From an uncultured Caulobacterales bacterium (GTDB lineage Bacteria > Pseudomonadota > Alphaproteobacteria > Caulobacterales > Maricaulaceae), in the NCBI GenBank assembly GCA_964534845.1, contig CAZHPV010000006.1:11140-75139 (forward strand): a stretch of DNA of 64,000 nt. The letters run 5' to 3'. The notes under the pieces are model-generated. The model saw only the letters and a program-made list of their open reading frames with translations. It did not search any database and had not been told where the DNA came from. The position numbers were made by a program, and so were the translations under genes. This document shows, piece after piece, positions 4,772 through 49,503 of this stretch (its first letter is position 1; each line of letters opens with the position of its first letter).

Positions 4772-6151
4772 GTGCCACAGAAAGATAAACTGGATTTGAC
4801 ACAGGGAAAGGTGTCTTCTCACATATTACGCATGCTCGGCCCGTCCAGTCTGGCAATTGTGGCACTGCTGTCTGCGGGCATAATTGATACGATTTATCTG
4901 GGCCATCTTACCAATCCCGATATACCCAATATGGGAGTCTTAGCCTTAGCCGCTGTCGGCTTTGCCTATCCGCTAACATTTATCGGTAATAGCGCCAATA
5001 TTGGGTTGGGCGCGGGAACCTTATCAGCGGTCTCTCGCGCGATTGGGCGCAAAGATATAGAACAAGCCAAAAGACGCGGAACAGCGGCCATGATGCTAGC
5101 CGTTAGTTTTATGCTGATCATTATCAATGTCATGCTTTTGATTTTGCCAAACTTACTCGACCTTTTGGGTGCGAAGGGGCAGATAAAAGAATTGGCACAG
5201 AGCTATTTACGTATCACCTTGCCGGGGCTGGTTATTATGTCAATGACAAGCCTGTGCGCCAATATATTACGGGCGCGCGGAGAAGCCGCTTTGCCGAGTT
5301 CATTTATGATCGTCAATGCGCTGGTGAATATTATCCTCGACCCGCTTCTTATTTTTGGAATTGGGCCTTTTCCGCGCTTAGAGGTAGAGGGAGCCGCTTT
5401 GGCGACCTTTATCGGATATTGTGCAAGCTCCATTTTCGCTCTTTATGTTGTCTGTTGGCGCAGGCGGGCCATTGCCTTTTCAGGCATGACATTCGGGTCT
5501 ATCAAACGGGCGTGGGGCGTTGTTGCCCGTGTGGGATTACCCGCTGCCGGAACGAATATAATTGTACCTATCGGCGCAACCATTGCTGTGGCGATCATCG
5601 CCCGCTTTTTAACCATAGAAGATGTCGCCGCCTTTACCGTTGCGGGACGCGCCGAAATGCTTTCCGTTGCCTTGCTTTACGCGCTTTCGGCCTGCATCGG
5701 CGCTGTGACAGGACAAAACGGGGGCGCGGGTCTGTCTGGGCGCGTGCGCGATACCTTCAAATTCTGCTATTTTATTTGCATAATGTGGGGCACATTTTCC
5801 GCGATTGTACTGGCCTTGTTTGCCGGCCCTATCGTTTCGGTGTTTACGGTCGATACATTGGTTATTTCCAAAGCCAAAGCCTATTTTTATATCGTACCCA
5901 TAACTGTATTTGCGTATGGGTTTGTCTTTGTCAGCGCTGCAGGCCTGAATGCTCTGGGGCGTCCGTTATACGGCCTTTGCTACACAATCATAAGGTCGAT
6001 CATTCTTTATGTCTTATGCATTTATATAGGTGTGCAGCTACACGGTCTGACTGGGGCGTTTATCGGGATAGCTTTTGCTAATCTTGTCTCGGGTCTTACG
6101 GCCTATCTGTGGACGATGCGCCGCGCGCCCATGAGTGCAAATATTCGTTAG
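4772..6151 (+). CDS. MATE-family efflux transporter
   Basis: 459-aa polytopic membrane protein whose length and repeat architecture fit the MATE family. GTG start preceded by a GAGGAA Shine-Dalgarno sequence. Confidence 0.8.
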   Translation: MPQKDKLDLTQGKVSSHILRMLGPSSLAIVALLSAGIIDTIYLGHLTNPDIPNMGVLALAAVGFAYPLTFIGNSANIGLGAGTLSAVSRAIGRKDIEQAKRRGTAAMMLAVSFMLIIINVMLLILPNLLDLLGAKGQIKELAQSYLRITLPGLVIMSMTSLCANILRARGEAALPSSFMIVNALVNIILDPLLIFGIGPFPRLEVEGAALATFIGYCASSIFALYVVCWRRRAIAFSGMTFGSIKRAWGVVARVGLPAAGTNIIVPIGATIAVAIIARFLTIEDVAAFTVAGRAEMLSVALLYALSACIGAVTGQNGGAGLSGRVRDTFKFCYFICIMWGTFSAIVLALFAGPIVSVFTVDTLVISKAKAYFYIVPITVFAYGFVFVSAAGLNALGRPLYGLCYTIIRSIILYVLCIYIGVQLHGLTGAFIGIAFANLVSGLTAYLWTMRRAPMSANIR

Positions 6152-6238
6152 TCCTTGATTGTTATTGATGGGTGCCGAGTTTACGCCGTTTCAAGCTATG
6201 TCTTGAGCTATCATCTCATACTCGGTAAGTCTTAGGCT

Positions 6239-7153
6239 ATGAAACGTGTTTTTACAGTGACGTGTAGCGCTCTCATTATAATGGGGTGTCAGGGTTCAGA
6301 TGCCGACACGGATAAAGCAAAACGGGTCGGGGTAAATTCAGAATGTTTAACGTCGCCCTCGCCTCCGCCGGTTAAACTGGCGGCGCAAACGGATTTCCAA
6401 TTGGGAAGTCCAGAAGGAGGGTATCCGGAAGAGGCTCCGCGTCTGGCAAGTTTTCCGGCTTTTGATATTGACGCAACGGAAGTTACCAATGCGCAATTTG
6501 CCAAATTCGTCCAAGAGACGGGTTATATCACTACAGCCGAGAAACCCCACATAGCGAGCGGACAGCCGGCAGGCGGGGCTGTTTTTAAGCCGCCGCGGGC
6601 CGGTCAAGCGGGGTGGTGGCAATTTATCGCGGGTGCGCATTGGCGCGCTCCGGAAGGTCCGAACTCGTATATAAAAGGGCGTGAGCAAGATCCTGTTGTG
6701 CAAGTCTCATTAGCGGACGCAAAGGCCTATGCGCAGTGGGCTGGGCGCGCTATTCCAAATGAAGCCCAATGGGAATATGCCGCGCGGGCAGGGGTGCGGA
6801 CACCTTATATGTGGGGCAGTGAAGACAAACAAGATGTGAGCACAAAGGCGGCTAATATTTGGCAGGGGGCCTTTCCCCTTGAAAACACAGGGGAAGACGG
6901 TTTTGTCGGCCGCGCTCCTATTGGCTGTTATCCTTCAAATGCATATGGGCTTTATGATATGATCGGCAATGTTTGGGAATGGACGCTAACGCCATTTGAG
7001 CTCAGCCCGTCTAAAATTGATTATGCGATTAAAGGGGGATCGTTTTTATGTGCACCGAATTATTGTGTGCGCTACCGCGCACCGGCCCGTCAGCCGCATG
7101 AGCAGGATTTTTCGACCAATCATATTGGATTTCGCACAGTGTCAAAACCCTGA
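6239..7153 (+). CDS. Formylglycine-generating-enzyme (SUMF1/FGE-sulfatase) family lipoprotein
   Basis: Lipobox IIMGC, plus the motifs EVTNAQFAKFV, GNVWEWT and KGGSFLC that are typical of the FGE-sulfatase domain. Confidence 0.8.
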   Translation: MKRVFTVTCSALIIMGCQGSDADTDKAKRVGVNSECLTSPSPPPVKLAAQTDFQLGSPEGGYPEEAPRLASFPAFDIDATEVTNAQFAKFVQETGYITTAEKPHIASGQPAGGAVFKPPRAGQAGWWQFIAGAHWRAPEGPNSYIKGREQDPVVQVSLADAKAYAQWAGRAIPNEAQWEYAARAGVRTPYMWGSEDKQDVSTKAANIWQGAFPLENTGEDGFVGRAPIGCYPSNAYGLYDMIGNVWEWTLTPFELSPSKIDYAIKGGSFLCAPNYCVRYRAPARQPHEQDFSTNHIGFRTVSKP

Positions 7154-7181
7154 GACGGCTCGTTTGGATAGACCTGTTAAA

Positions 7182-7937
7182 TCAGGCCGGAAACTCTTTA
7201 TAAAAATATGTTTTGCCCCTCTGATAAGAGTGGAAAATACGGGGCGGGGCGGAGGGCAGGGCTAAATATTGTTCGAGTACTTGTAACATCATTTTCGTGG
7301 CGCGTTGCAAATCCAGTTTTCCAATCTCGTCAAATGAGAACCAATCTACATTTGACAATTCTGCGCTATCGGAAATTGGCGGCGGCGTGCCAGTTAAATG
7401 TTTTACAAAAAACCATGTGTCGTAACGCCTATGGCGGTGAGGCGGGGTAACGGCGCGTCCAAAAACTTCTATCCCGCTTAGATCAGCGATCTGTCCCTGG
7501 TCATGTAAAGCCTGCCAGCCCGCATTTTTCATATTGCGTATTGTGTCTTGAGGTTGTCCCAGAATAAGACTTGTTTCTTCAAAGGTCTCCCTTATGGATG
7601 CCAGCACAATAGCGCGGGCCTTGCGCGGATTATAAGCGGCCTCCAAAATGGTCTCTGTTCGCGGGGATAAATCCCCTATATAGGGAGCATAACTGTCAGC
7701 GCGCTCAACCCGCCCGCCCGGAAAAACGAAAACGCTGGGCATAAAATCATTTTTCGAGCTGCGTTGGCCCATTAAAATTTTAGGCTTGTCTTTTGGCCCT
7801 TTTAACAAAACAATAGTCGAGGCAATGCGCGGACGTGGAGCCCGTTTAAGCGCTAGGCGGCGCGCCTTTTCTTCCGCATTCATAATAATTTTGCCGGGAA
7901 TGACTATTTCAGTTTTCGAGGGCGTTTTCATGCTCAT
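7182..7937 (-). CDS. NUDIX-family hydrolase
   Basis: 251 aa with a Nudix-box-like segment, PGGRVE...IRETFEETSL. It lies 18 nt downstream of rnr on the same strand. Confidence 0.7.
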   Translation of the reverse strand: MSMKTPSKTEIVIPGKIIMNAEEKARRLALKRAPRPRIASTIVLLKGPKDKPKILMGQRSSKNDFMPSVFVFPGGRVERADSYAPYIGDLSPRTETILEAAYNPRKARAIVLASIRETFEETSLILGQPQDTIRNMKNAGWQALHDQGQIADLSGIEVFGRAVTPPHRHRRYDTWFFVKHLTGTPPPISDSAELSNVDWFSFDEIGKLDLQRATKMMLQVLEQYLALPSAPPRIFHSYQRGKTYFYKEFPA

Positions 7938-42672: not shown

Positions 42673-43389
42673 CTATAGCGGTTCCGGTTCTGTTGGCGTA
42701 AGGCCGAGCGCACTGTCTGCTTTTGCCAGATAAAGGTTCATTTCCGTCTCGATTTTTAGACGAATGGTCTCAAGCGTCGTTTCATCTGTCTGGGGAGGGA
42801 TAAAGACGGGTGTCCCCCAAATGATTTTCCCGCGTCCAAATGGCAAGGGCCAAATAAAACGATCCCATGTGGTAAATTGTTTCCGGTTTCTTACGGCAAA
42901 GCTACAGGGGAGCAAGGGGGCGCCTGTTAAGCGCGCCAATCTAAGCGGGCCGTGGCTAAGTCGTTGCCTTGGGCCGCGCGGGCCGTCAGGGGTAATGACG
43001 ATGCAGGCGCCGTCTGCAATAGCTGTGACGATTTCCTGAGAGGCTCTTGCTCCGCCTTTAGCTTTTGTGGTTTTTGCTTTGCGCGCGGAACCCCGAATGG
43101 TTTTAAGGCCGAGAAAGTGGGAACAATGGGCGACAATATTACCGTCTCTCGAACGTGAGATTAGGACGTGCGGAGGTTGCCAAGTCTTTTTCCATGCTGA
43201 ATTTAGCATTAAAAACCGCGAATGCCAGGTTAGGGCAATAAGGCCTTCGCCGTTTCCAATAATCGGAGCTGCTATGTCGCTGCGTTCAAAATCCCAACGG
43301 GTGGTGTATTTTACAATGACCATATAGGCCGCGACTAACAGGCCTAATGCTTTTTGTAAGGCGCTTGAGCGCATGAAGCGTTTGAACAC
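42673..43389 (-). CDS. DUF374-family (LPLAT-like) protein commonly found upstream of waaA
   Basis: 238 aa with SRSRDGNIVA...ITPDGPRGP. Confidence 0.75.
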   Translation of the reverse strand: MFKRFMRSSALQKALGLLVAAYMVIVKYTTRWDFERSDIAAPIIGNGEGLIALTWHSRFLMLNSAWKKTWQPPHVLISRSRDGNIVAHCSHFLGLKTIRGSARKAKTTKAKGGARASQEIVTAIADGACIVITPDGPRGPRQRLSHGPLRLARLTGAPLLPCSFAVRNRKQFTTWDRFIWPLPFGRGKIIWGTPVFIPPQTDETTLETIRLKIETEMNLYLAKADSALGLTPTEPEPL

Positions 43390-43440
43390 GCGCGGCCTCC
43401 CTGTTATGCCTGTGTTTTAATCTTTAAAGGCATATGACAG

Positions 43441-44100
43441 ATGAGCCTAGACCTCAATATCCCAGCTCATAGAAAACAGGCCTTGCGCGAGCTTTATTGG
43501 GGCGATCACGGGTTTTTGCGTCTGTGGTTTCACAATCATCATCATTTGGGTGAGGGGATGTATCGTGAAAATCAACCCTCACCAAAGCGGATTGCTATAT
43601 GGGCAGATATGGGGATTAAAACGGTTATCAATTTGCGCGGAGAAAGTCCGAAAGGCTATTATCTTCTAGAGAAGGAGGCCTGCAAGGCGCACGGCTTAAC
43701 ATTAATTGATTACCGTATGTATTCGCGCGATGTACATGACGCTAAGACAATAAAGGGCGCGCGTGACTTATTTGAGACGATAGAATACCCTGCCGTAATG
43801 CATTGTAAATCCGGCGCAGATAGAACCGGTATTATGGGCGTTTTGTATAGACATTTTAAACTCGGCGAGCCCATCGCAAAGGCTGTTGAGCAGTTGGATT
43901 TTAAATATTTACATGTCCGTCAGGGGAAAACTGGCATGTTGGATTTCTTCTTTAAGGATTACCTCGCCTATGCCGAGATACACGGGACGGACTTTATGGA
44001 GTGGGTTGAGACGGTTTATGAGCCCCAAGATGTCAAAGCCCGTTTTATGAGCCATTGGTCAGGAAATGCCTTAACGGAGTTTATTTTACGGCGCGAATGA
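43441..44100 (+). CDS. Cys-based (CX5R) tyrosine-phosphatase-family protein
   Basis: Active-site loop HCKSGADRTG. It is divergent from the lipid A operon, with a 51-nt spacer. Confidence 0.75.
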   Translation: MSLDLNIPAHRKQALRELYWGDHGFLRLWFHNHHHLGEGMYRENQPSPKRIAIWADMGIKTVINLRGESPKGYYLLEKEACKAHGLTLIDYRMYSRDVHDAKTIKGARDLFETIEYPAVMHCKSGADRTGIMGVLYRHFKLGEPIAKAVEQLDFKYLHVRQGKTGMLDFFFKDYLAYAEIHGTDFMEWVETVYEPQDVKARFMSHWSGNALTEFILRRE

Positions 44101-44344
44101 TTTCGATTTGTAGTGTTTCAGGCGAATTGGGCCTCAAGGTCGCGGCGATATTGTATCTCTCACGCGCGATGTTAGGACGACATTTTTTAAGAAAAATCCA
44201 TTAGTCAAGCGTCTTATTGCGGAGTTCTCTTCACATATATGTGTCTATTCTGTTAAGTAAATTTGAGAAAATATGCCTTGAGATGGACATATTTAAGCTT
44301 TTAGTATGGTCCGGATTTTCACAAGAGATATTCAGGAGATACTC

Positions 44345-44911
44345 ATGACTAAATTTAAATCCGCGCTTATCATTTCAACGACTTTAGCCCTTTTTGCAGC
44401 CACGCCGGTTATCGCACAATCTTACGGCAGCGGTGCCGCTAAGGATAAGGTGGTGGATACCGTTAAGGACGAAGCTGTCAAAAGAGCAAAAGATAAGGCC
44501 TATGGTTCTGCTGACAAAGCCACTGACGGCGCTGTGGAAAAAGCCAAAGACGCTTACGGGTCTGGCGAAAAAGCCAAAGACGCTTACGGGTCTGGCGAAA
44601 AAGCCAAAGAATCCTATGGCTCTGGTGATAAAGCTAAAGAAGCTTATGGATCCGGTGATAAGCCATCGCATGGTTCAGGTACCACTGACACGACATCACA
44701 TGGTTCAGGTACAACCGGTACCACATCACATGGTTCAGGAACAACGACGACGACATCACATGGTTCAGGTACAACCCAAACAACAACGACAAGCACATCT
44801 TCGGGGTCTAGCTACTCAAGTGGTTCGACTGTACTCAATTGCCCAACAGGTACGCGCGCCCAGCCTGATGGTACATGTCTGATAGTCGGGAATTATTTTC
44901 CAGGCTCTTAA
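44345..44911 (+). CDS. Secreted low-complexity tandem-repeat protein with a C-terminal Cys loop
   Basis: The ATG at 44345 has a CAGGAGA Shine-Dalgarno sequence. Signal peptide ...ATPVIAQ, four KAK[DE][AS]YGSG[ED] units, four SHGSGTTxTT units, and the ending NCPTGTRAQPDGTC... Confidence 0.75.
   Translation: MTKFKSALIISTTLALFAATPVIAQSYGSGAAKDKVVDTVKDEAVKRAKDKAYGSADKATDGAVEKAKDAYGSGEKAKDAYGSGEKAKESYGSGDKAKEAYGSGDKPSHGSGTTDTTSHGSGTTGTTSHGSGTTTTTSHGSGTTQTTTTSTSSGSSYSSGSTVLNCPTGTRAQPDGTCLIVGNYFPGS
44540..44779 (+). repeat. In-frame 30-nt tandem repeats (two families)
   Basis: aaagccaaagacgcttacgggtctggcgaa occurs twice exactly, plus diverged copies, followed by four tcacatggttcaggtaca... units. 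Confidence 0.85.
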
Positions 44912-44940
44912 AGCCACATAGATTAAAGTTAAAACACGAT

Positions 44941-44970
44941 AAACCGCCCAGTTTTTGGGCGGTTTTTTTT
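44941..44970 (+). terminator. Intrinsic terminator between convergent genes
   Basis: Stem AAACCGCCCA/TGGGCGGTTT with a 5-nt loop and a T-run up to 44970. Confidence 0.85.
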
Positions 44971-44979
44971 ATTTAAATT

Positions 44980-46716
44980 TTAGCCGCAGATTCTGGGCTC
45001 AGTTAGCCTGACCGGCCTGAAATGAAACCATTTACGAAACCATTTTGGATGTAGAATTGTTTCAATATCTTCTGATAAGGTGTCGGCGGTCATATTTTTA
45101 TAGGCTTTGCCATTACGTGTATAGCTTACGACAGCGCCGGGCGTATCAGATACAAAAGCGAGGAGGTCGTAATAAACTTCAGCGCGTTCATTCACGTCAT
45201 ATGTGGCTATAATATTGCGCGGCGTAACCTCGGTGACTTTCGCGACATCTTCCAAATATTTAAACGGTTTAGGGACGTTTTTCATCACCAAGTGATTACT
45301 AACGCCGGCCTCCAATCTCAAATTTGAGAACATGTTTACCGCCTGTGCTGTTTTCAAACCAAAATAGGGCATAGCGCAATTTGCAAAAAATAGAGCTGTT
45401 GCCATTCCACCAATAACATTGGCACTCGCGCGGTTTTCGGTGGGGGTTAGGCGTTGTTGAGAGCTCCCATGGCGCATTATCACAAAGCAGAAGGGCAGTA
45501 ATATGGGGAGCATAAGGATTGTGACTATTGAATATTGACGTGTGAGAGCCATTAAGATCACCAGAAAAACCAAGATCAAAGCCGCGCCGATATAAACTGG
45601 GTGCCGTTTTCTATCAGTTATGAATTTCATGAGAGTTGAATTTTGTATATTGAGAGCGGCCTCTTCGTTTAGGAATAGGCAGTGCAGTGCGATCGCGAGC
45701 GTCGTAAATGTAATATACATGGCGTAACCGCTAAGGGCGAGTAAGATATGAAAACAAATGCCGCAGATAATGCCGATATGGCGCCAACGTTTTGATAACA
45801 ACATCAAGACAAGTATGGTCTCAATGATAAATGTGCCATAAATGGCAAGGTAATACATGGCATCAAAACGTATGAGATTAAGCGGTGTTGGCATTTTATG
45901 CCATAATGACACGGCGCAACTTGTGTCGGGATTTAGAAAATCGGAATTGATTTTGTGAAACACACCCCAAAAATACATTACAAATAATGTGCCTTGCCCG
46001 GCGACGGTGAAATTAGTGAAAATTTGCGTCCAGCTTCTGCCCCGTAAAGCCGTATAAATAAAGGCGAACCAATAGCCTAAAATTGCAAAGTTTCTGACGA
46101 TAGTGTGGTTTGAATTAATAGGTGCTTGTGCGATAGCGCTTATGGTACTTGTCAACATAAGTAGAAAAAGCAGGCGCGAAGATTGGGGCTTAAAAAATAA
46201 GAAAATTGCAGATATCAAGAGAAGCACCAGGTCCCAATCCGGTGGTAAACGTCCATATTTCAGCGTGTAATTAAAAAAATGGAAGATCGAGAAAAGCGAA
46301 AATAAAAGCCCGAAAATTGTTGCGCGGGCTTGTGCGCCTTGCTCTTCAGGCATGATTTGAGTGCGTCCCATTGCAAATAGAACCAACCATCGACCTGCAC
46401 GCAAAATGGGATAGAGGAACGCGGCTAAAAACCCAATCGACATAATCCATTTATTTATTTTATTGAACAGGGTTGAAGGCGTTGAAAGCAGGGCTAAATG
46501 ATTAACGGCTTCATGGCCACCTATAAGACGGCCGTCTAAATCTATGACCATGCCCTTATCCAGATTAAATCCCTTTTTGATAAGGTCATTCTTTTTGTCG
46601 GGATGTTCACGCAGGTCAATGAGTGTGATGGGTCCAGCCGTCTCTTTTATACGTATTAGAGACATATATTTTTGGCAAAAGGGGCAATCCCCGTCGTAAA
46701 AAACACTTAAGGCCAT
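44980..46716 (-). CDS. Fusion protein: N-terminal DCC-family (DUF393) CxxC thiol-disulfide oxidoreductase domain, an HTTM / vitamin-K-dependent gamma-carboxylase-like polytopic membrane domain, and a C-terminal soluble domain
   Basis: 578 aa starting VFYDGDCPFCQ (DCC signature), followed by many hydrophobic helices. WGVFHKINSDFLNP resembles the GLKKLDADW region of animal carboxylase, and ICFH... and AVNMFSN also resemble HTTM motifs. These comparisons are from memory. Strong GAGGGGGAG Shine-Dalgarno sequence. Confidence 0.6.
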   Translation of the reverse strand: MALSVFYDGDCPFCQKYMSLIRIKETAGPITLIDLREHPDKKNDLIKKGFNLDKGMVIDLDGRLIGGHEAVNHLALLSTPSTLFNKINKWIMSIGFLAAFLYPILRAGRWLVLFAMGRTQIMPEEQGAQARATIFGLLFSLFSIFHFFNYTLKYGRLPPDWDLVLLLISAIFLFFKPQSSRLLFLLMLTSTISAIAQAPINSNHTIVRNFAILGYWFAFIYTALRGRSWTQIFTNFTVAGQGTLFVMYFWGVFHKINSDFLNPDTSCAVSLWHKMPTPLNLIRFDAMYYLAIYGTFIIETILVLMLLSKRWRHIGIICGICFHILLALSGYAMYITFTTLAIALHCLFLNEEAALNIQNSTLMKFITDRKRHPVYIGAALILVFLVILMALTRQYSIVTILMLPILLPFCFVIMRHGSSQQRLTPTENRASANVIGGMATALFFANCAMPYFGLKTAQAVNMFSNLRLEAGVSNHLVMKNVPKPFKYLEDVAKVTEVTPRNIIATYDVNERAEVYYDLLAFVSDTPGAVVSYTRNGKAYKNMTADTLSEDIETILHPKWFRKWFHFRPVRLTEPRICG

Positions 46717-46775
46717 AAACTCCCCCTCACGCTCTATAATATGCGATAAGTGTTTAACTTTCCGTGAAACAACAA

Positions 46776-46802
46776 AGCCCGCCTCACAGTATGAGGCGGG
46801 CT
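46776..46802 (-). terminator. Strong hairpin terminator in the msrB-downstream spacer
   Basis: 11-bp stem AGCCCGCCTCA/TGAGGCGGGCT with a 5-nt loop. T-rich tracts lie on both sides: TTGTTGTTT on the minus strand and CGTTTTG on the plus strand. Confidence 0.7.
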
Positions 46803-47126
46803 CGTTTTGAAGTTTGGGTCTTACCGGACATCATGCCGGTTTCAAGATAGATAGCTCTTTACCCAATTTCGTTTTTACGAAAGGGCTGATCTAACAGCTT
46901 TGGGCAGACCCCTCAAAATAGATAGACAAATCAGACCTCCTTTCATAAATGCGGCCCCACTATGGGACGGCTCATGACGAAAGTCTGCGATAAATTCCGG
47001 TAAAAATCAATCCTGAAATTTCATGAAATTTTTTACAGCGTTTACGCTGGCTTAAGGAAATCAACCCAGTCTAACGCGGCTCAATAAAAGCCGCGACATA
47101 GTTGGGGGCTAGACCCCTAAATTCGC

Positions 47127-47624
47127 TTAGGCGTCAGCGATAAAATCCAGAGCGACACCATTATTGCAATAGCGCAGGCCTGTAGGGCGCGGTCCGTCTT
47201 TAAAGACATGTCCCTGATGTCCGCCGCAGCGCGAGCAATGATATTCCGTACGCGGTAGGACGAGTTTGTAATCTTTCTTGGTTTCGACAGAGCCTTCAAT
47301 AGCCTGAAAAAAGCTCGGCCAACCTGTGCCGGAATCGAATTTATATTCGGCCTTGAATAGAGGTAGTTTACAGCCGGCACAGGCAAATGTGCCGTCCCGT
47401 TTTTCGTCATTTAGCGGGCTTGTAAAGGGGCGTTCCGTGCCTTCTTGACGAAGGATGTAAAACTCCTGATCCGTTAGAATCTGTTTCCACTCGGTTTCGG
47501 AAAGGCTTGCCCAGTCTTGGTTGGTCAATTTAGTCTCCACGGCTTGCGCTTCATTGCTTGTCTTTGTGCAGGACGCCAATGCTATTGCAGCGGCACCTAA
47601 ACCTAATTTGCGCCTTGTTAACAT
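47127..47624 (-). CDS. msrB: Peptide-methionine (R)-S-oxide reductase MsrB, exported form
   Basis: Zinc CxxC pairs (CAGCKLPLF and CSRCGGHQGHVF), the catalytic RYCNNG motif, and an N-terminal TRRKLGLGAAAIALASC that looks like a Tat signal plus lipobox. Confidence 0.9.
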   Translation of the reverse strand: MLTRRKLGLGAAAIALASCTKTSNEAQAVETKLTNQDWASLSETEWKQILTDQEFYILRQEGTERPFTSPLNDEKRDGTFACAGCKLPLFKAEYKFDSGTGWPSFFQAIEGSVETKKDYKLVLPRTEYHCSRCGGHQGHVFKDGPRPTGLRYCNNGVALDFIADA

Positions 47625-47705
47625 GATATAAGCTCCTTGTTCGGCCCATTCTATAGGCTAAAAAACGTTAAAAGACCAATTACGTTTGTATCACGATGGA
47701 GTGAA

Positions 47706-48701
47706 CTAATTGAAGCCCCACAAGAAATTTAAACAGATCAATAGTGAGACTATATAAAAGCCAATCCAACGGTTTAATTTGAACAGACCCAAGGCATTTT
47801 TGCCTTCTTTATCCAGACTATACGCTATTGATAATAACAGGGCACATAAAAGAGCTATTAGGCCAAAGGCTGGTTTTAAGAGCTGTGTTCTCGCAAATTT
47901 CGACCAGAATCCCCCCTCGATACCCGGATTGGCCATCTGGATAATCTCAAGGCCTATTGCGCGGAAAAGTAGTGCTGTCATGACTATAAAACATATAGCG
48001 ACGGCTGGTCTGACATAAGCTCCGAACCTGCGGGCTGTGCTTTTAATGCCTATAAGGGCATCGTCCTCCTTGTCTTGACAGGCATAGACCGTATCATATC
48101 CCACAGTCCAGAAAATCAGTCCGGCATATAATATCAACACGGATTGGCTAATCGATGACGTCTTGATGGCATAGGCAACAAGCACGGCCCAGTTAAAGGT
48201 CAGGCCCAGCCAGATTTGTGGCCACCACGTTATGCGCTTCATAAAGGGATAGGCGGCGACGAGTGGGATGGCGCAAAGCGCTATAATTTGGGCTAATCGG
48301 GGTAAGCACAGCAGGACAGCGAGGCCGATAAAACACTGCGCAAACAGCCATATCCACGCTTGTTTTGTAGTGATTGTCCCAGCGGGTAAGGGTCGTAATG
48401 CCGTACGTGTGACTTGCCGGTCAAGGTCTTGGTCGACAATATCATTATAGGTGCAGCCCGCCCCGCGCATAGCAACCGCGCCGATAAATAAGAGCACAGC
48501 CCATTTTAAATCCGCACTTTCCAAACCCCGCGAAAGGCCAGCAAAAGCCAAGCCTATCCACCCCGGCAGAGCAAGCAGCCAATAGCCTATCGGTCGGTCT
48601 AGTCTTGAAAGTTGTAGGTAAGGCCGCCAGCTTTGAGGGGCGCGGTAAACCCAATGGCTTTTTTGGGCATCCTTTATAATATCAGAAGGTGAGGGCGACA
48701 T
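47706..48701 (-). CDS. ubiA: 4-hydroxybenzoate polyprenyltransferase
   Basis: 331-aa membrane protein with the NDIVDQDLD motif (NDxxDxxxD). Confidence 0.88.
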   Translation of the reverse strand: MSPSPSDIIKDAQKSHWVYRAPQSWRPYLQLSRLDRPIGYWLLALPGWIGLAFAGLSRGLESADLKWAVLLFIGAVAMRGAGCTYNDIVDQDLDRQVTRTALRPLPAGTITTKQAWIWLFAQCFIGLAVLLCLPRLAQIIALCAIPLVAAYPFMKRITWWPQIWLGLTFNWAVLVAYAIKTSSISQSVLILYAGLIFWTVGYDTVYACQDKEDDALIGIKSTARRFGAYVRPAVAICFIVMTALLFRAIGLEIIQMANPGIEGGFWSKFARTQLLKPAFGLIALLCALLLSIAYSLDKEGKNALGLFKLNRWIGFYIVSLLICLNFLWGFN

Positions 48702-48741
48702 AAGGGGTGATTAGCGCGAAAATAGACGCTATGAAAGCGAT

Positions 48742-49503
48742 ATGCGAGAAAATTATACCTTAACCCGCCTTTATGTGAACACCGATTTATCTCACCGTGT
48801 CGAGATCGCGCTGTCGAAAGCGCAGCAGCATTATTTATCCTCCGTTTTGCGTAAAAATGCGGGCGATAGGCTAAGAGTATTTAATGGCCGGGACGGGGAG
48901 TGGGAGGCAGAGCTTTCCAAGCTGACGCGTAAAGAGGCGGTTCTTACCTGTCTGGATAATTTGCGGCCGCAAATGACAGCGCCCGAAATAGCCCTTATCT
49001 TCGCGCCTGTGCGCAAACACAGAACCGCCTTTATCATTGAAAAAGCCACTGAGCTGGGTGTGACGACCCTCCAGCCTCTGATTACCGATCATACCCAGTT
49101 TTCACGCTTTAATCTTGAGAAAGCCCGCTTGCAATCCATTGAGGCGGCCGAGCAGACAGAGCGTATGGATGTGCCTCTTATTCGGCCCATTATAAAAAAT
49201 TTGGATGATCTTATGCAGATGTGGCCCAAGATCTATGCGGGACATAGTCTTGTTTTTGCCGATGAGGCTTTAGCGGGCGAACCCGCAGCCCAAAGCGCGA
49301 AAAACGTTTTGGAAACGCTTTCTGGGCCTTGCGCTTTATTGGTCGGGCCGGAAGGCGGGTTTTCAGTGCGTGAGCGCGACATTTTACAAGCTTGCGACTT
49401 TGTACAGACGGTCTCGCTCGGGCCGCGCATTTTGCGCGCTGATACAGCGGCACTCTCTTTATTGACGCTATGGCAAGCCCTAAAGGGTGACTGGACTGCC
49501 TGA
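48742..49503 (+). CDS. rsmE: 16S rRNA (uracil1498-N3)-methyltransferase
   Basis: 253 aa with LVGPEGGFSVRE and LGPRILRADTAAL. Confidence 0.88.
   Translation: MRENYTLTRLYVNTDLSHRVEIALSKAQQHYLSSVLRKNAGDRLRVFNGRDGEWEAELSKLTRKEAVLTCLDNLRPQMTAPEIALIFAPVRKHRTAFIIEKATELGVTTLQPLITDHTQFSRFNLEKARLQSIEAAEQTERMDVPLIRPIIKNLDDLMQMWPKIYAGHSLVFADEALAGEPAAQSAKNVLETLSGPCALLVGPEGGFSVRERDILQACDFVQTVSLGPRILRADTAALSLLTLWQALKGDWTA

Follow-up and report, generated by a model that had tools for sequence, protein, structure and literature searches.

A DCC thiol-redox domain fused to a distant relative of the gamma-glutamyl carboxylase membrane fold in a Caulobacterales genome

A 64,000-nucleotide stretch of DNA from an uncultured Caulobacterales bacterium (contig CAZHPV010000006.1; the whole stretch is called the window below) carries on its minus strand a gene for a 578-residue protein, the fusion protein, in which an N-terminal DCC-type thiol-redox domain is joined to a membrane domain related to animal gamma-glutamyl carboxylase (GGCX) and to a predicted periplasmic tail. 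Its homologues form a large family that keeps the residues with which GGCX activates vitamin K hydroquinone and in which the DCC domain is genetically coupled to the membrane domain. We consider the chances about even that the fusion protein is a quinol-activating, O2-using, thiol-recharged membrane enzyme of three modules.

A three-module protein and its kinship with GGCX

Searching a collection of 5.8 billion proteins returned 262 homologues of the fusion protein at E<=1e-3, the best 120 of which are 47-100% identical to it and almost all full-length, so that the open reading frame (ORF) represents a genuine gene and not a chance ORF. Named sources of these homologues include Litorimonas, Yoonia, Cognatiyoonia and Erythrobacter, and their annotation, where given, is just "DCC1-like thiol-disulfide oxidoreductase family protein" or "DUF393 domain-containing protein"; an NCBIfam scan found no family model for the fusion protein. 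The AlphaFold model (predicted local distance difference test score, 85; predicted template modelling score, 0.86) shows a polytopic domain built of helices and, after it, a small alpha/beta tail. The protein thus comprises three modules, namely a DCC domain, an 11-helix membrane domain and a C-terminal tail of about 125 residues that is predicted to be periplasmic. The features of the gene are as follows.

44980..46716, minus strand: complete DCC-HTTM-like fusion gene, 578 residues, stop codon at 44980-44982 (ORF list, homologues, AlphaFold model)
46369..46716, minus strand: DCC-type thioredoxin-like domain with terminal amphipathic helix, residues 1-116, predicted cytoplasmic (PF04134 match)
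46675..46695, minus strand: DxxCxxC redox motif DGDCPFC, residues 8-14 (32-sequence alignment)
45361..46341, minus strand: membrane domain of 11 helices, residues 126-452, of which the stretch ~199-362 aligns with the GGCX HTTM core
46105..46113, minus strand: S-N-H motif at a predicted periplasmic helix end, residues 202-204, tentatively equivalent to N158-N159-H160 of GGCX
45913..45960, minus strand: predicted active-site loop FHKINSDFLNPDTSCA with K255 and C267, residues 253-268 (hhalign mapping)
45820..45822, minus strand: E299, equivalent of GGCX D263, the partner of K218 (hhalign, GTFIIE against GGLLLD)
45703..45750, minus strand: H323 (equivalent of H287), L326 (position of N290) and T338 (equivalent of S300), residues 323-338 (hhalign)
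44983..45360, minus strand: conserved segment (GLKxAQxxNMFxNLRLE...SNH) and small alpha/beta domain with C577 at its end, residues 453-578, predicted periplasmic

The N-terminus of the protein reads MALSVFYDGDCPFC. Its assignment to the DCC/DUF393 family, which had been made from the letters alone, is upheld by Pfam family PF04134 (DCC1-like/DUF393), which matches residues 5-109 well above its gathering score (40.6 bits against 27.8; E 6.8e-10) and also matches each of 32 aligned homologues (32/32). Residues D8, G9, C11, P12 and C14 are invariant in this alignment. Secondary structure elements of the domain follow the order beta-alpha-beta-alpha-beta-beta-alpha in the model, matches to glutaredoxin and CLIC are weak, and the domain is closed by an amphipathic helix (residues 95-116) that carries a conserved LYPxLRxGRW.

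The membrane domain belongs to the HTTM/GGCX superfamily and is a distant bacterial relative of the animal carboxylase, as had been proposed from three motifs, WGVFHKINSDFLNP, ICFHILLAL and AVNMFSN, all of which are present in the ORF (residues 250-263, 320-328 and 459-465, respectively). This kinship is drawn from matches of orthologues to the Pfam HTTM family, from profile-profile alignment and from two fold searches. PF05090 (HTTM) matches 13 of the 32 orthologues with a best E of 4.8e-8, four of them above the gathering score of 27.7 bits (P0036, 33.3; P0005, 32.5; P0039, 31.0; P0033, 28.1), and the matches are confined to residues ~244-350, which correspond to model positions 148-259. For hhalign, the family alignment was enlarged to 146 sequences by an exhaustive search of representatives, and the GGCX profile was built from human GGCX, which is 100% identical to PDB chain 13ib_A over residues 1-758, and 16 relatives, three of them bacterial-type. 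The two profiles align with 88.7% probability (E 2.5e-6) over residues 199-362 of the fusion protein and 155-324 of GGCX, with a Viterbi core at 241-360 against 204-322. The link surfaced only with this pair of profiles; hhalign of a 32-sequence profile against the single human GGCX sequence gave no match. In a Foldseek search of the PDB with the model, the best 14 matches are all human GGCX with a probability of 1.0, and later matches are noise. A library of viral structures yielded one significant match, an HTTM protein of Harvfovirus (E 1e-11; template modelling (TM) score of 0.75 when normalised by the target; root-mean-square deviation of 4.4 Å over 375 columns; 23% identity).

In GGCX, the base that takes the proton from vitamin K hydroquinone is K218, which also forms a hydrogen bond to the C4 oxygen of the vitamin; the C1 oxygen is bound by N290 along with a water held by H287 and S300, and the substrate glutamate has its carboxylate held by N159, H160 and Y395 (PMC13187478). 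D263 assists K218; the D263E variant stays active, and the viral counterparts carry a glutamate, E165/E225 (PMC13486548). In both hhalign alignments K255 of the fusion protein occupies the position of K218 (FHK255IN against VKK218LD), and this lysine is kept in 146 of 146 family members. E299 at the position of D263, a Glu that also occurs in the GGCX-like epoxidases of giant viruses, is equally invariant (146/146), as are H323 at the position of H287 (FH323 against FH287CMN; 146/146) and N257 (146/146), and position 338, which corresponds to S300, is Ser or Thr in 144/146. Strong conservation extends to C267 (142/146), to N203 and H204 of the S-N-H motif (142/146 and 128/146, respectively) and, in the tail, to N474 (144/145), H475 (146/146) and the penultimate C577 (140/140). 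GGCX residues Y395 and E82 fall outside any alignable region. The sequence-only reading had therefore recognised the K218 and FHCMN regions correctly, and the lysine and the histidine on whose conservation it had made its proposal depend are present throughout the family.

Its third parallel did not hold. Equating AVNMFSN with the WDMM region of GGCX lacks support in any hhalign alignment and was rejected; none of the alternative alignments (-alt 6, low mact) pairs residues 440-480 of the fusion protein with GGCX 380-415. The carboxylation segment of GGCX (YGYSWDMM, within 374-418 or 384-415) was not detected, the alignment stopping at GGCX 324, and the lumenal domain PF22777 matched neither the fusion protein nor any of its 32 homologues, which counts against the carboxylase reading that had been suggested for the protein. 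Because the quinol-activation residues are kept and the carboxylation-specific parts were not found, the fusion protein would seem to resemble the quinol-activating "epoxidase" half of GGCX, and not a proven carboxylase. The "vitamin K epoxidases" of giant viruses keep K218, have Glu at the position of D263 and Ile at that of N290, and are missing 384-415 (PMC13486548). The active-site pattern of the fusion protein is of this viral (VKE) type, with the Lys kept, Glu at D263, an aliphatic residue at N290 and no carboxylation segment found.

Predicted topology and the coupling of the DCC domain to the membrane domain

The orientation of the protein was predicted by a positive-inside count, in which Lys and Arg in each loop between the model helices were counted over the 32-sequence alignment. 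Loops 117-125, 176-179, 226-229, 308-311, 349-372 and 417-425 with their flanks, which would be inside, sum to about 14 Lys and Arg residues, and loops 154-160, 198-202 (SNH), 254-284 (HK...C267), 328-334 and 392-394, which would be outside, to about 3.4. According to this prediction, the N-terminus of the fusion protein is in, its C-terminus is out, and the GGCX-like site and the C-terminal domain lie at the periplasmic face. In GGCX itself the N-terminus is cytoplasmic, and both the active site and the C-terminal domain lie in the ER lumen. Where the DCC domain exists as a stand-alone partner, the protein starts straight with the fold, without a signal peptide, and ends in the equivalent of helix 95-116 with a basic tail after it. 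On the strength of the charge counts and of these signal-less partners, the DCC domain is predicted to be cytoplasmic and membrane-associated. Helix 95-116 was considered as a first transmembrane segment, an arrangement that would place the DCC domain in the periplasm, and was rejected: it contains conserved arginines, lies within the DCC model and, in the signal-less stand-alone partners, leads into a basic tail. On the periplasmic side, C577 probably forms a putative disulfide with C267 that would tie the tail to the active-site loop. In GGCX, C99-C450 is a structural disulfide.

The partnership between the modules was examined in a survey of 80 genomic loci belonging to alpha-, gamma- and beta-proteobacteria and to a small number of other bacteria, in which ORFs were called within 6 kb of the gene and clustered, 131 immediate neighbours were scanned against Pfam, and hidden Markov models of the three modules were run over all ORFs. 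The membrane domain and the C-terminal tail almost always reside in one protein, and the DCC domain is fused N-terminally in most of ~75 surveyed loci. Twelve loci have no DCC domain fused to the membrane gene, and in 7 of them a stand-alone DCC gene directly adjoins it, either downstream (L070, L077, L078), upstream (L081) or in divergent or convergent orientation (L080, L084, L085). Since a stand-alone DCC gene is usually adjacent where the domain is not fused, the pairing looks functional, and these split-gene loci strengthen the earlier view of the CxxC module as a functional partner of the membrane enzyme. Among 115 long representatives of the family (at least 430 residues), the tail accompanies the membrane domain in 99; 30 are fused, 69 consist of membrane domain and tail without DCC, and 15 are the membrane domain only. 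The family is large, with 1,832 cluster representatives found at E<=1e-3, of which 1,304 reach E<=1e-10; it lies mostly outside Pfam and diverges down to 25-30% identity.

One Rhodobacteraceae locus of the survey (L065, 4024-7743) contains a fusion ORF of 1,239 residues in which the DCC domain begins at residue 660, reflecting either an N-terminal extension or an ORF-calling artefact of GC-rich DNA. Megaplasmids and chromids of Sinorhizobium (NZ_CP023068.1, NZ_CP029452.1 and others; H1-H7) encode unfused relatives made of membrane domain and tail that are ~30% identical to the window protein. Each of these Sinorhizobium records has a second matching place, and stand-alone DCC genes occur on several plasmids from other genera. 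Outside bacteria, the plastoglobules of Arabidopsis have a DCC protein among their core components (PMC12587418), a soft pointer towards DCC proteins working in lipid settings rich in prenylquinones.

Genomic neighbourhoods in the window and in relatives

Downstream of the fusion gene and convergent with it lies a gene for a secreted 188-residue protein, which contains four KAK[DE][AS]YGSG[ED] units and four SHGSGTTxTT units and ends in a CPTGTRAQPDGTC loop; upstream, on the same strand, lie msrB and ubiA. The features around the fusion gene are listed below.

44345..44911, plus strand: gene for the secreted 188-residue repeat protein (ORF and repeats), whose distribution is evidence against a conserved partnership
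44941..44965, no strand assigned: bidirectional terminator hairpin with an 11-bp stem and T runs on both strands (terminator scan)
46775..46803, minus strand: strong terminator-like hairpin of 13 pairs, 8 of them G-C, after msrB and before the fusion gene (terminator scan)
47127..47624, minus strand: MsrB (SelR, E 5e-46), starting with MLTRRKLGLGAAAIALASC

The repeat protein is as it had been described from the letters, with an export signal, the two kinds of repeats, a Cys loop, a spacing of 68 nt between its stop codon and that of the convergent fusion gene, and a terminator between the two genes. Judged by eye, MTKFKSALIISTTLALFAATPVIAQS is a plausible Sec signal, and Tandem Repeats Finder reports two 30-nt arrays in the gene, with 3.7 and 3.8 copies. 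The suggestion that it is an obvious candidate substrate of the fusion protein fared less well. A six-frame motif scan places a YGSG/HGSGT repeat protein beside 76%-identical orthologues only (L001, L002, L003 (= L008) and L042), and none was found within 6 kb of the fusion gene in ~75 other loci, sister genera included. The repeat protein belongs to a small family of secreted proteins, with 18 homologue clusters (P0390-P0407), which share KAYGSG-type repeats and a C-terminal CP[AT]G[TS]xAQP[ND]GTC loop with a short tail, and in the two homologue contexts that were inspected the gene stands between GST/GIY-YIG genes and cysS, without a fusion gene. The repeat protein is probably a chance neighbour and not the substrate. 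Repeat counts vary among close relatives, from 4 + 4 units in the window to 2 + 5 in L001 (5812-6324, minus strand), and SHGSGTT units occur only in the window's clade among the sequences inspected. On the far side of the repeat-protein gene, positions 43441-44100 (plus strand) encode a 219-residue protein with weak phosphatase-like matches (Y_phosphatase3, E 7e-6; PTP-SAK; Tc-R-P), and a phosphatase-like gene adjoins the repeat-protein gene in the closest relative as well (L001, 6517-7176).

The upstream neighbours were also identified correctly, MsrB by the SelR match and UbiA by TIGR01474 (285 bits against a cut-off of 275). MsrB is probably exported and membrane-anchored, its signal being of lipoprotein type and possibly of Tat type as judged by eye, and an exported MsrB would need a periplasmic reductant. 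Because of the hairpin at 46803-46775 and the gap of 410 nt (46717-47126) that separates them, msrB and the fusion gene probably do not form one operon, which suggests that the fusion gene is its own transcription unit. No sigma-70-like promoter was detected on the minus strand of this gap. Only the closest relatives keep the full order ubiA-msrB-fusion-repeat-PTP-DUF374; the UbiA and MsrB clusters have members from the window, L001 and L042 only, and in Litorimonas, Algimonas and Hellea, whose proteins are 57-61% identical, TraB/GumN, FKBP, GNAT and GFA are the neighbours instead. With adjacency limited to the closest relatives, neither the proposal of the repeat protein as substrate nor the supposed co-occurrence with msrB and ubiA is supported.

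Nor do our results bear out horizontal acquisition, which had been suggested on the basis of an AT-rich composition. The GC content of the fusion gene (0.429) is the lowest of the 35 long ORFs (mean 0.497, standard deviation 0.022) and compares with 48.6% for the window, and its GC content at third codon positions (0.453) is just 1.3 standard deviations below the mean of these ORFs. As the third positions are unremarkable, the deficit resides in codon positions 1 and 2 and follows from a hydrophobic amino-acid composition; low GC here reflects amino-acid composition, not recent transfer. Synteny with the nearest relative is kept, and the nearest proteins come from related genera of Caulobacterales/Maricaulales. 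ARAGORN found no tRNA in the whole window and Rfam no family in 43000-49000, the gap between msrB and the fusion gene included, so that these scans offer no riboswitch or integration-site clue. A plasmid collection contained no close copies, the matches being the 30%-identical unfused Sinorhizobium relatives and stand-alone DCC genes.

In relatives, two kinds of neighbours recur. Ten loci of one monophyletic clade hold a pilin gene (PF00114 and N_methyl). This clade includes Marinimicrobium, Gilvimarinus, Porticoccaceae, Pseudomonas yangonensis, Lysobacteraceae, Wenzhouxiangella, Salinisphaeraceae and Variovorax, the sources listed for the ten loci being Pseudomonas, Variovorax, Lysobacteraceae, Cellvibrionales, Salinisphaeraceae and Wenzhouxiangella. 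In eight of the loci (L044, L050, L053, L058, L063, L070, L073, L076) the fusion gene (~5900-7750) follows pilA on the same strand, the pilin ending 4-136 nt upstream in seven of them and a beta-lactamase-family ORF intervening in L044; in L074 and L075 the pilin gene is downstream of the fusion gene on the opposite strand. An eleventh locus, from Luteimonas (L048), has a pilin gene and pilC, the fusion ORF not being called in the ORF set, and in a twelfth, from Magnetococcales (L069), which falls outside the pilin clade, the gene lies between pilB and pilC with no pilin called. Loci L053 and L058 have the order pilC-pilB, divergent pilA-fusion, nadC, and the pilA-fusion-nadC arrangement is seen in Pseudomonas yangonensis and in a Porticoccaceae genome. 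In Pseudomonas, pilin accessory and modification genes reside in this slot. After the usual disulfide loop, pilins of the clade carry a short C-terminal tail rich in Ala, Thr, Ser, Gly and Pro. A search of a literature library for HTTM together with pilin found no paper. In this gamma/beta-proteobacterial sister clade, the major type IV pilin is a likely substrate.

Genes of the fatty-acid hydroxylase and desaturase families adjoin the relatives in nine loci overall. A member of the fatty-acid hydroxylase family (PF04116, E ~1e-23) is encoded directly upstream in five loci from at least two orders, in each case with an overlap of 4 to 58 nt at the fusion-gene start according to the ORF calls, and the remaining four genes are convergent.

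L020, 5003-6001, upstream: PF04116 gene, Erythrobacter (ORF call)
L023, 1405-2370, upstream: PF04116 gene, Sulfitobacter (ORF call)
L028, 4970-5953, upstream: PF04116 gene, Rhodobacteraceae (ORF call)
L029, 4997-5959, upstream: PF04116 gene, Rhodobacteraceae (ORF call)
L031, 4910-5953, upstream: PF04116 gene, Rhodobacteraceae (ORF call)
L067, 7783-8781, convergent: PF04116 gene
L032, 7765-8967, convergent within 30 nt: FA_desaturase gene, Yoonia/Loktanella
L037, 7744-8865, convergent within 30 nt: FA_desaturase gene, Yoonia/Loktanella
L041, 1599-2642, convergent within 30 nt: FA_desaturase gene, Yoonia/Loktanella

The hydroxylases score 54-66 bits against OlsE, for which the cut-off is 475, and are remote relatives of it.

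Proposed mechanism, alternatives and significance

Comparison with characterised and proposed systems delimits what is particular to the fusion protein. It shares with GGCX the membrane fold, the HTTM core, equivalents of K218, D263 (as Glu), H287 and S300 (as Ser/Thr), probably those of N159/H160, and an inferred topology with the N-terminus in and the active-site loop and C-terminal domain out. It differs from GGCX by an identity of 10-20%, by Leu/Ile at the position of N290, by a 384-415 segment and a PF22777 domain that are not detected, by three extra C-terminal helices, an unrelated small periplasmic domain and the fused DCC domain, and by a host that makes ubiquinone (ubiA) and shows no evident substrate of the Gla type. 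Some VKOR homologues of bacteria, four-helix bundles, are also fused to a thioredoxin-like domain; their cysteines and thioredoxin domain face the periplasm, and they oxidise exported proteins. Like the fusion protein as it is interpreted here, they join a quinone-handling membrane enzyme covalently to a CxxC domain, which in the fusion protein has a probable thioredoxin fold; unlike it, they have an unrelated membrane fold and a periplasmic thioredoxin domain, the CxxC of the fusion protein being predicted to be cytoplasmic.

The "vitamin K redox module" of giant viruses combines VKOR with a GGCX-like epoxidase (VKE), with or without a sterol desaturase, and its function is hypothesised (PMC13486548). 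The resemblance lies in a truncated GGCX-like enzyme with the Lys kept, Glu at D263, an aliphatic residue at N290 and a carboxylation segment that was not found, in a CxxC redox partner, in the hydroxylase or desaturase adjacent in several bacterial relatives, and in Harvfovirus as the best viral fold match. Here, however, a cytoplasmic DCC domain is fused in cis, whereas the viral partner is a membrane VKOR with outward-facing cysteines; the window locus is without VKOR, hydroxylase and desaturase, and the fusion protein has an additional periplasmic domain. A firmicute HTTM-DCC1-like fusion of 447 residues has HTTM at 52-289 followed by DCC at 323-431, and a DUF5819 partner (bioRxiv 10.64898/2026.08.19.745780). 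It unites the same two Pfam families in one protein and is annotated just as "DCC family thiol-disulfide oxidoreductase", but the order is reversed and the extracytoplasmic part comes from the separate DUF5819 protein. The window protein starts with DCC, has an HTTM domain too divergent for Pfam and a fused periplasmic domain, and gives no DUF5819 match. In B. subtilis, SdpB together with SdpA is needed for maturation of the SdpC cannibalism toxin (PMC6818787), and Streptomyces MloH is, as cited in the preprint above, the vitamin-K-dependent carboxylase of malonomycin biosynthesis (bioRxiv 10.64898/2026.08.19.745780). SdpB and MloH compare with the fusion protein as bacterial HTTM-family proteins, and by their descriptions in these sources they have a genetically or biochemically supported role in modifying an exported peptide or a metabolite. 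Neither is reported to carry a fused DCC domain, and each has its substrate encoded in its own operon or cluster; for the fusion gene, no such accompanying substrate gene is conserved. For the Leptospira homologue that the sequence-only reading credits with epoxidase but not carboxylase activity, a search of the literature library returned no paper.

Both domains and their fusibility are thus already known, from databases and one preprint. New are a large, divergent, DCC-first subfamily whose HTTM core scores under the Pfam threshold and which has three additional helices and a conserved tail on the predicted periplasmic side; the finding that the residues for quinol activation in GGCX are invariant within this DCC-HTTM-like family; and the split-gene evidence for the DCC partnership along with the pilin and hydroxylase associations.

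The mechanism that we favour runs as follows. The DxxCxxC domain would reside in the cytoplasm, held at the membrane surface by its amphipathic helix. The 11-helix HTTM domain would bind a reduced respiratory quinone at the periplasmic face, in a site formed by K255, E299, H323, T338 and probably N203/H204; ubiquinol is the presumed quinone of this host because the organism encodes ubiA, the gene in the window being a bona fide ubiA by its TIGR01474 match. Lys255, helped by Glu299, may deprotonate the quinol, which could then react with O2 as in the epoxidase half-reaction of GGCX, and the resulting strong base or oxidant would modify an extracytoplasmic substrate presented by the periplasmic domain. 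The DCC domain would draw on the thiol reductant of the cytoplasm to convert oxidised quinone back into quinol, taking the role of VKOR from the opposite side of the membrane; we infer that it is a dedicated partner of the membrane enzyme, most simply a quinol-regenerating reductant. Within this mechanism, three observations favour a protein substrate, namely the pilin-linked clade, the presence of a periplasmic domain and the Asn-His dyad. The proposal may be carried further, to a ubiquinone-run counterpart of the animal vitamin K cycle that performs a modification, as yet unknown, of exported proteins (carboxylation, or other carbanion chemistry such as epimerisation) and that acts in the gamma/beta clade on the C-terminal tail of the pilin as a new class of pilin accessory enzyme, but this fuller version we regard as distinctly doubtful.

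Several observations weigh against the favoured mechanism. Its chemistry is extrapolated from GGCX, to which the protein is only 10-20% identical, and the similarity escapes the simpler searches: hmmscan gave no PF05090 match for the window protein even at E<=1, so that the Pfam check that had been proposed for it came out negative for the protein itself and positive for the orthologues described above, and neither phmmer of the protein nor hmmsearch with a 32-homologue and an 11-homologue profile found a GGCX chain in the complete set of PDB sequences. TM-scores to GGCX in the Foldseek search are low (0.30-0.36). At the active site, the position of the quinone-binding N290 is not conserved, residue 326 being Leu/Ile in 142/146, and N203/H204 align with N159/H160 in the maximum accuracy (MAC) alignment of hhalign only, outside the Viterbi core. 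The DCC cysteines and the putative quinol site are predicted at opposite faces of the membrane, which implies that any quinone recycling would proceed via diffusible quinone and not in a shared active site; of the "VKOR-in-cis" idea of a built-in quinone recycler, the functional partnership of the CxxC module is therefore strengthened, and recycling at a shared site is not. We know of no quinone site on a DCC domain and of no DCC protein with a demonstrated substrate. The unfused majority of representatives (69/115 without a fused DCC domain) and the 5 of 12 such surveyed loci that have no DCC gene nearby mean that DCC is not universally required in cis. Finally, the neighbourhoods are heterogeneous and indicate no single class of substrate.

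Among the alternatives, a redox module directed at lipids, in which quinol oxidation drives or supplies a membrane di-iron lipid hydroxylase or desaturase and the substrate is a lipid, seems to us unlikely, though it deserves to be taken seriously. This interpretation would account for the PF04116 genes directly upstream in five loci and convergent in L067, and for the desaturase genes within 30 nt in Yoonia/Loktanella; the family also has the signature of the viral epoxidases in common (PMC13486548), and Harvfovirus, the source of the best viral fold match, is among the viruses with such a set of genes. However, neither a hydroxylase nor a desaturase stands beside the gene in the window or in its Hellea, Algimonas and Litorimonas relatives, the hydroxylases are remote from characterised enzymes (the OlsE scores given above), the conserved periplasmic domain and the Asn-His dyad suit a soluble or protein substrate better, and the viral proposal is itself a hypothesis.

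It is improbable that the fusion protein is instead a thiol-disulfide machine, passing equivalents between the DCC cysteines, quinone and the periplasmic C267/C577 in the manner of DsbB/VKOR or DsbD, with MsrB or the disulfide loop of pilin as clients. The periplasmic cysteines are indeed kept (C267 in 142/146, C577 in 140/140), a CxxC domain is fused, an upstream MsrB with a lipoprotein-type signal would need a periplasmic reductant, and pilins and the repeat protein each end in a disulfide loop. Such a machine lacks a conserved intramembrane Cys pair, however (C410 occurs in 33/146 and C447 in 66/146), and reduction of a disulfide by ubiquinol is thermodynamically uphill according to established redox potentials. 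Furthermore, msrB is adjacent in the nearest relatives only, the invariant residues are the quinol-activation set of GGCX, for which DsbB/VKOR-type chemistry has no need, and C267-C577 is more simply understood as a structural disulfide comparable to C99-C450 of GGCX.

We give an equally poor chance to a maturation factor that is not an oxygenase, acting without quinone chemistry as a scaffold or chaperone in the way of SdpB (with SdpA) for SdpC or of LMF1 for lipases. In its favour, SdpB belongs to the HTTM proteins, LMF1 is weakly matched by one family member (E 0.003) and the pilin link is compatible with such a role, but absolute conservation of the GGCX quinol residues at 25-30% identity is hard to explain without catalysis there, and no protease- or chaperone-like domain is detectable. 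Least probable of all is that the protein, with a quinone recycler built in, is a gamma-glutamyl carboxylase in the strict sense and acts on the Glu residues of the repeat protein next to it: the GGCX-like Lys/acid/His set is kept, the neighbour is exported, Glu-rich and retained beside the 76%-identical orthologues, and a bacterial HTTM carboxylase exists in MloH (as cited in bioRxiv 10.64898/2026.08.19.745780), but the repeat protein is absent from all other surveyed loci and its homologues sit beside GST, GIY-YIG and cysS without a fusion gene, the two genes are convergent with a terminator between them, the 384-415 segment (Y395, WDMM) and PF22777 are not detectable, N290 is not conserved, and nothing resembling a propeptide recognition element is apparent.

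Bacterial HTTM proteins are numerous and almost none has a known reaction; the DCC-HTTM family ties HTTM and DCC together genetically. The invariance of the GGCX residues that handle vitamin K hydroquinone in aerobic, ubiquinone-making Proteobacteria leads to a testable hypothesis of a modifying enzyme that faces the periplasm, depends on quinol and O2 and is recharged by thiols. Culturable species in which the gene occupies the slot beside the pilin gene (Pseudomonas yangonensis, Variovorax paradoxus, Luteimonas, Gilvimarinus), or species in which it is translationally coupled to a fatty-acid hydroxylase gene, offer a tractable entry. A result in a pilin- or hydroxylase-linked system would assign a function to bacterial HTTM and DCC proteins and would bear on the vitamin K module of giant viruses.

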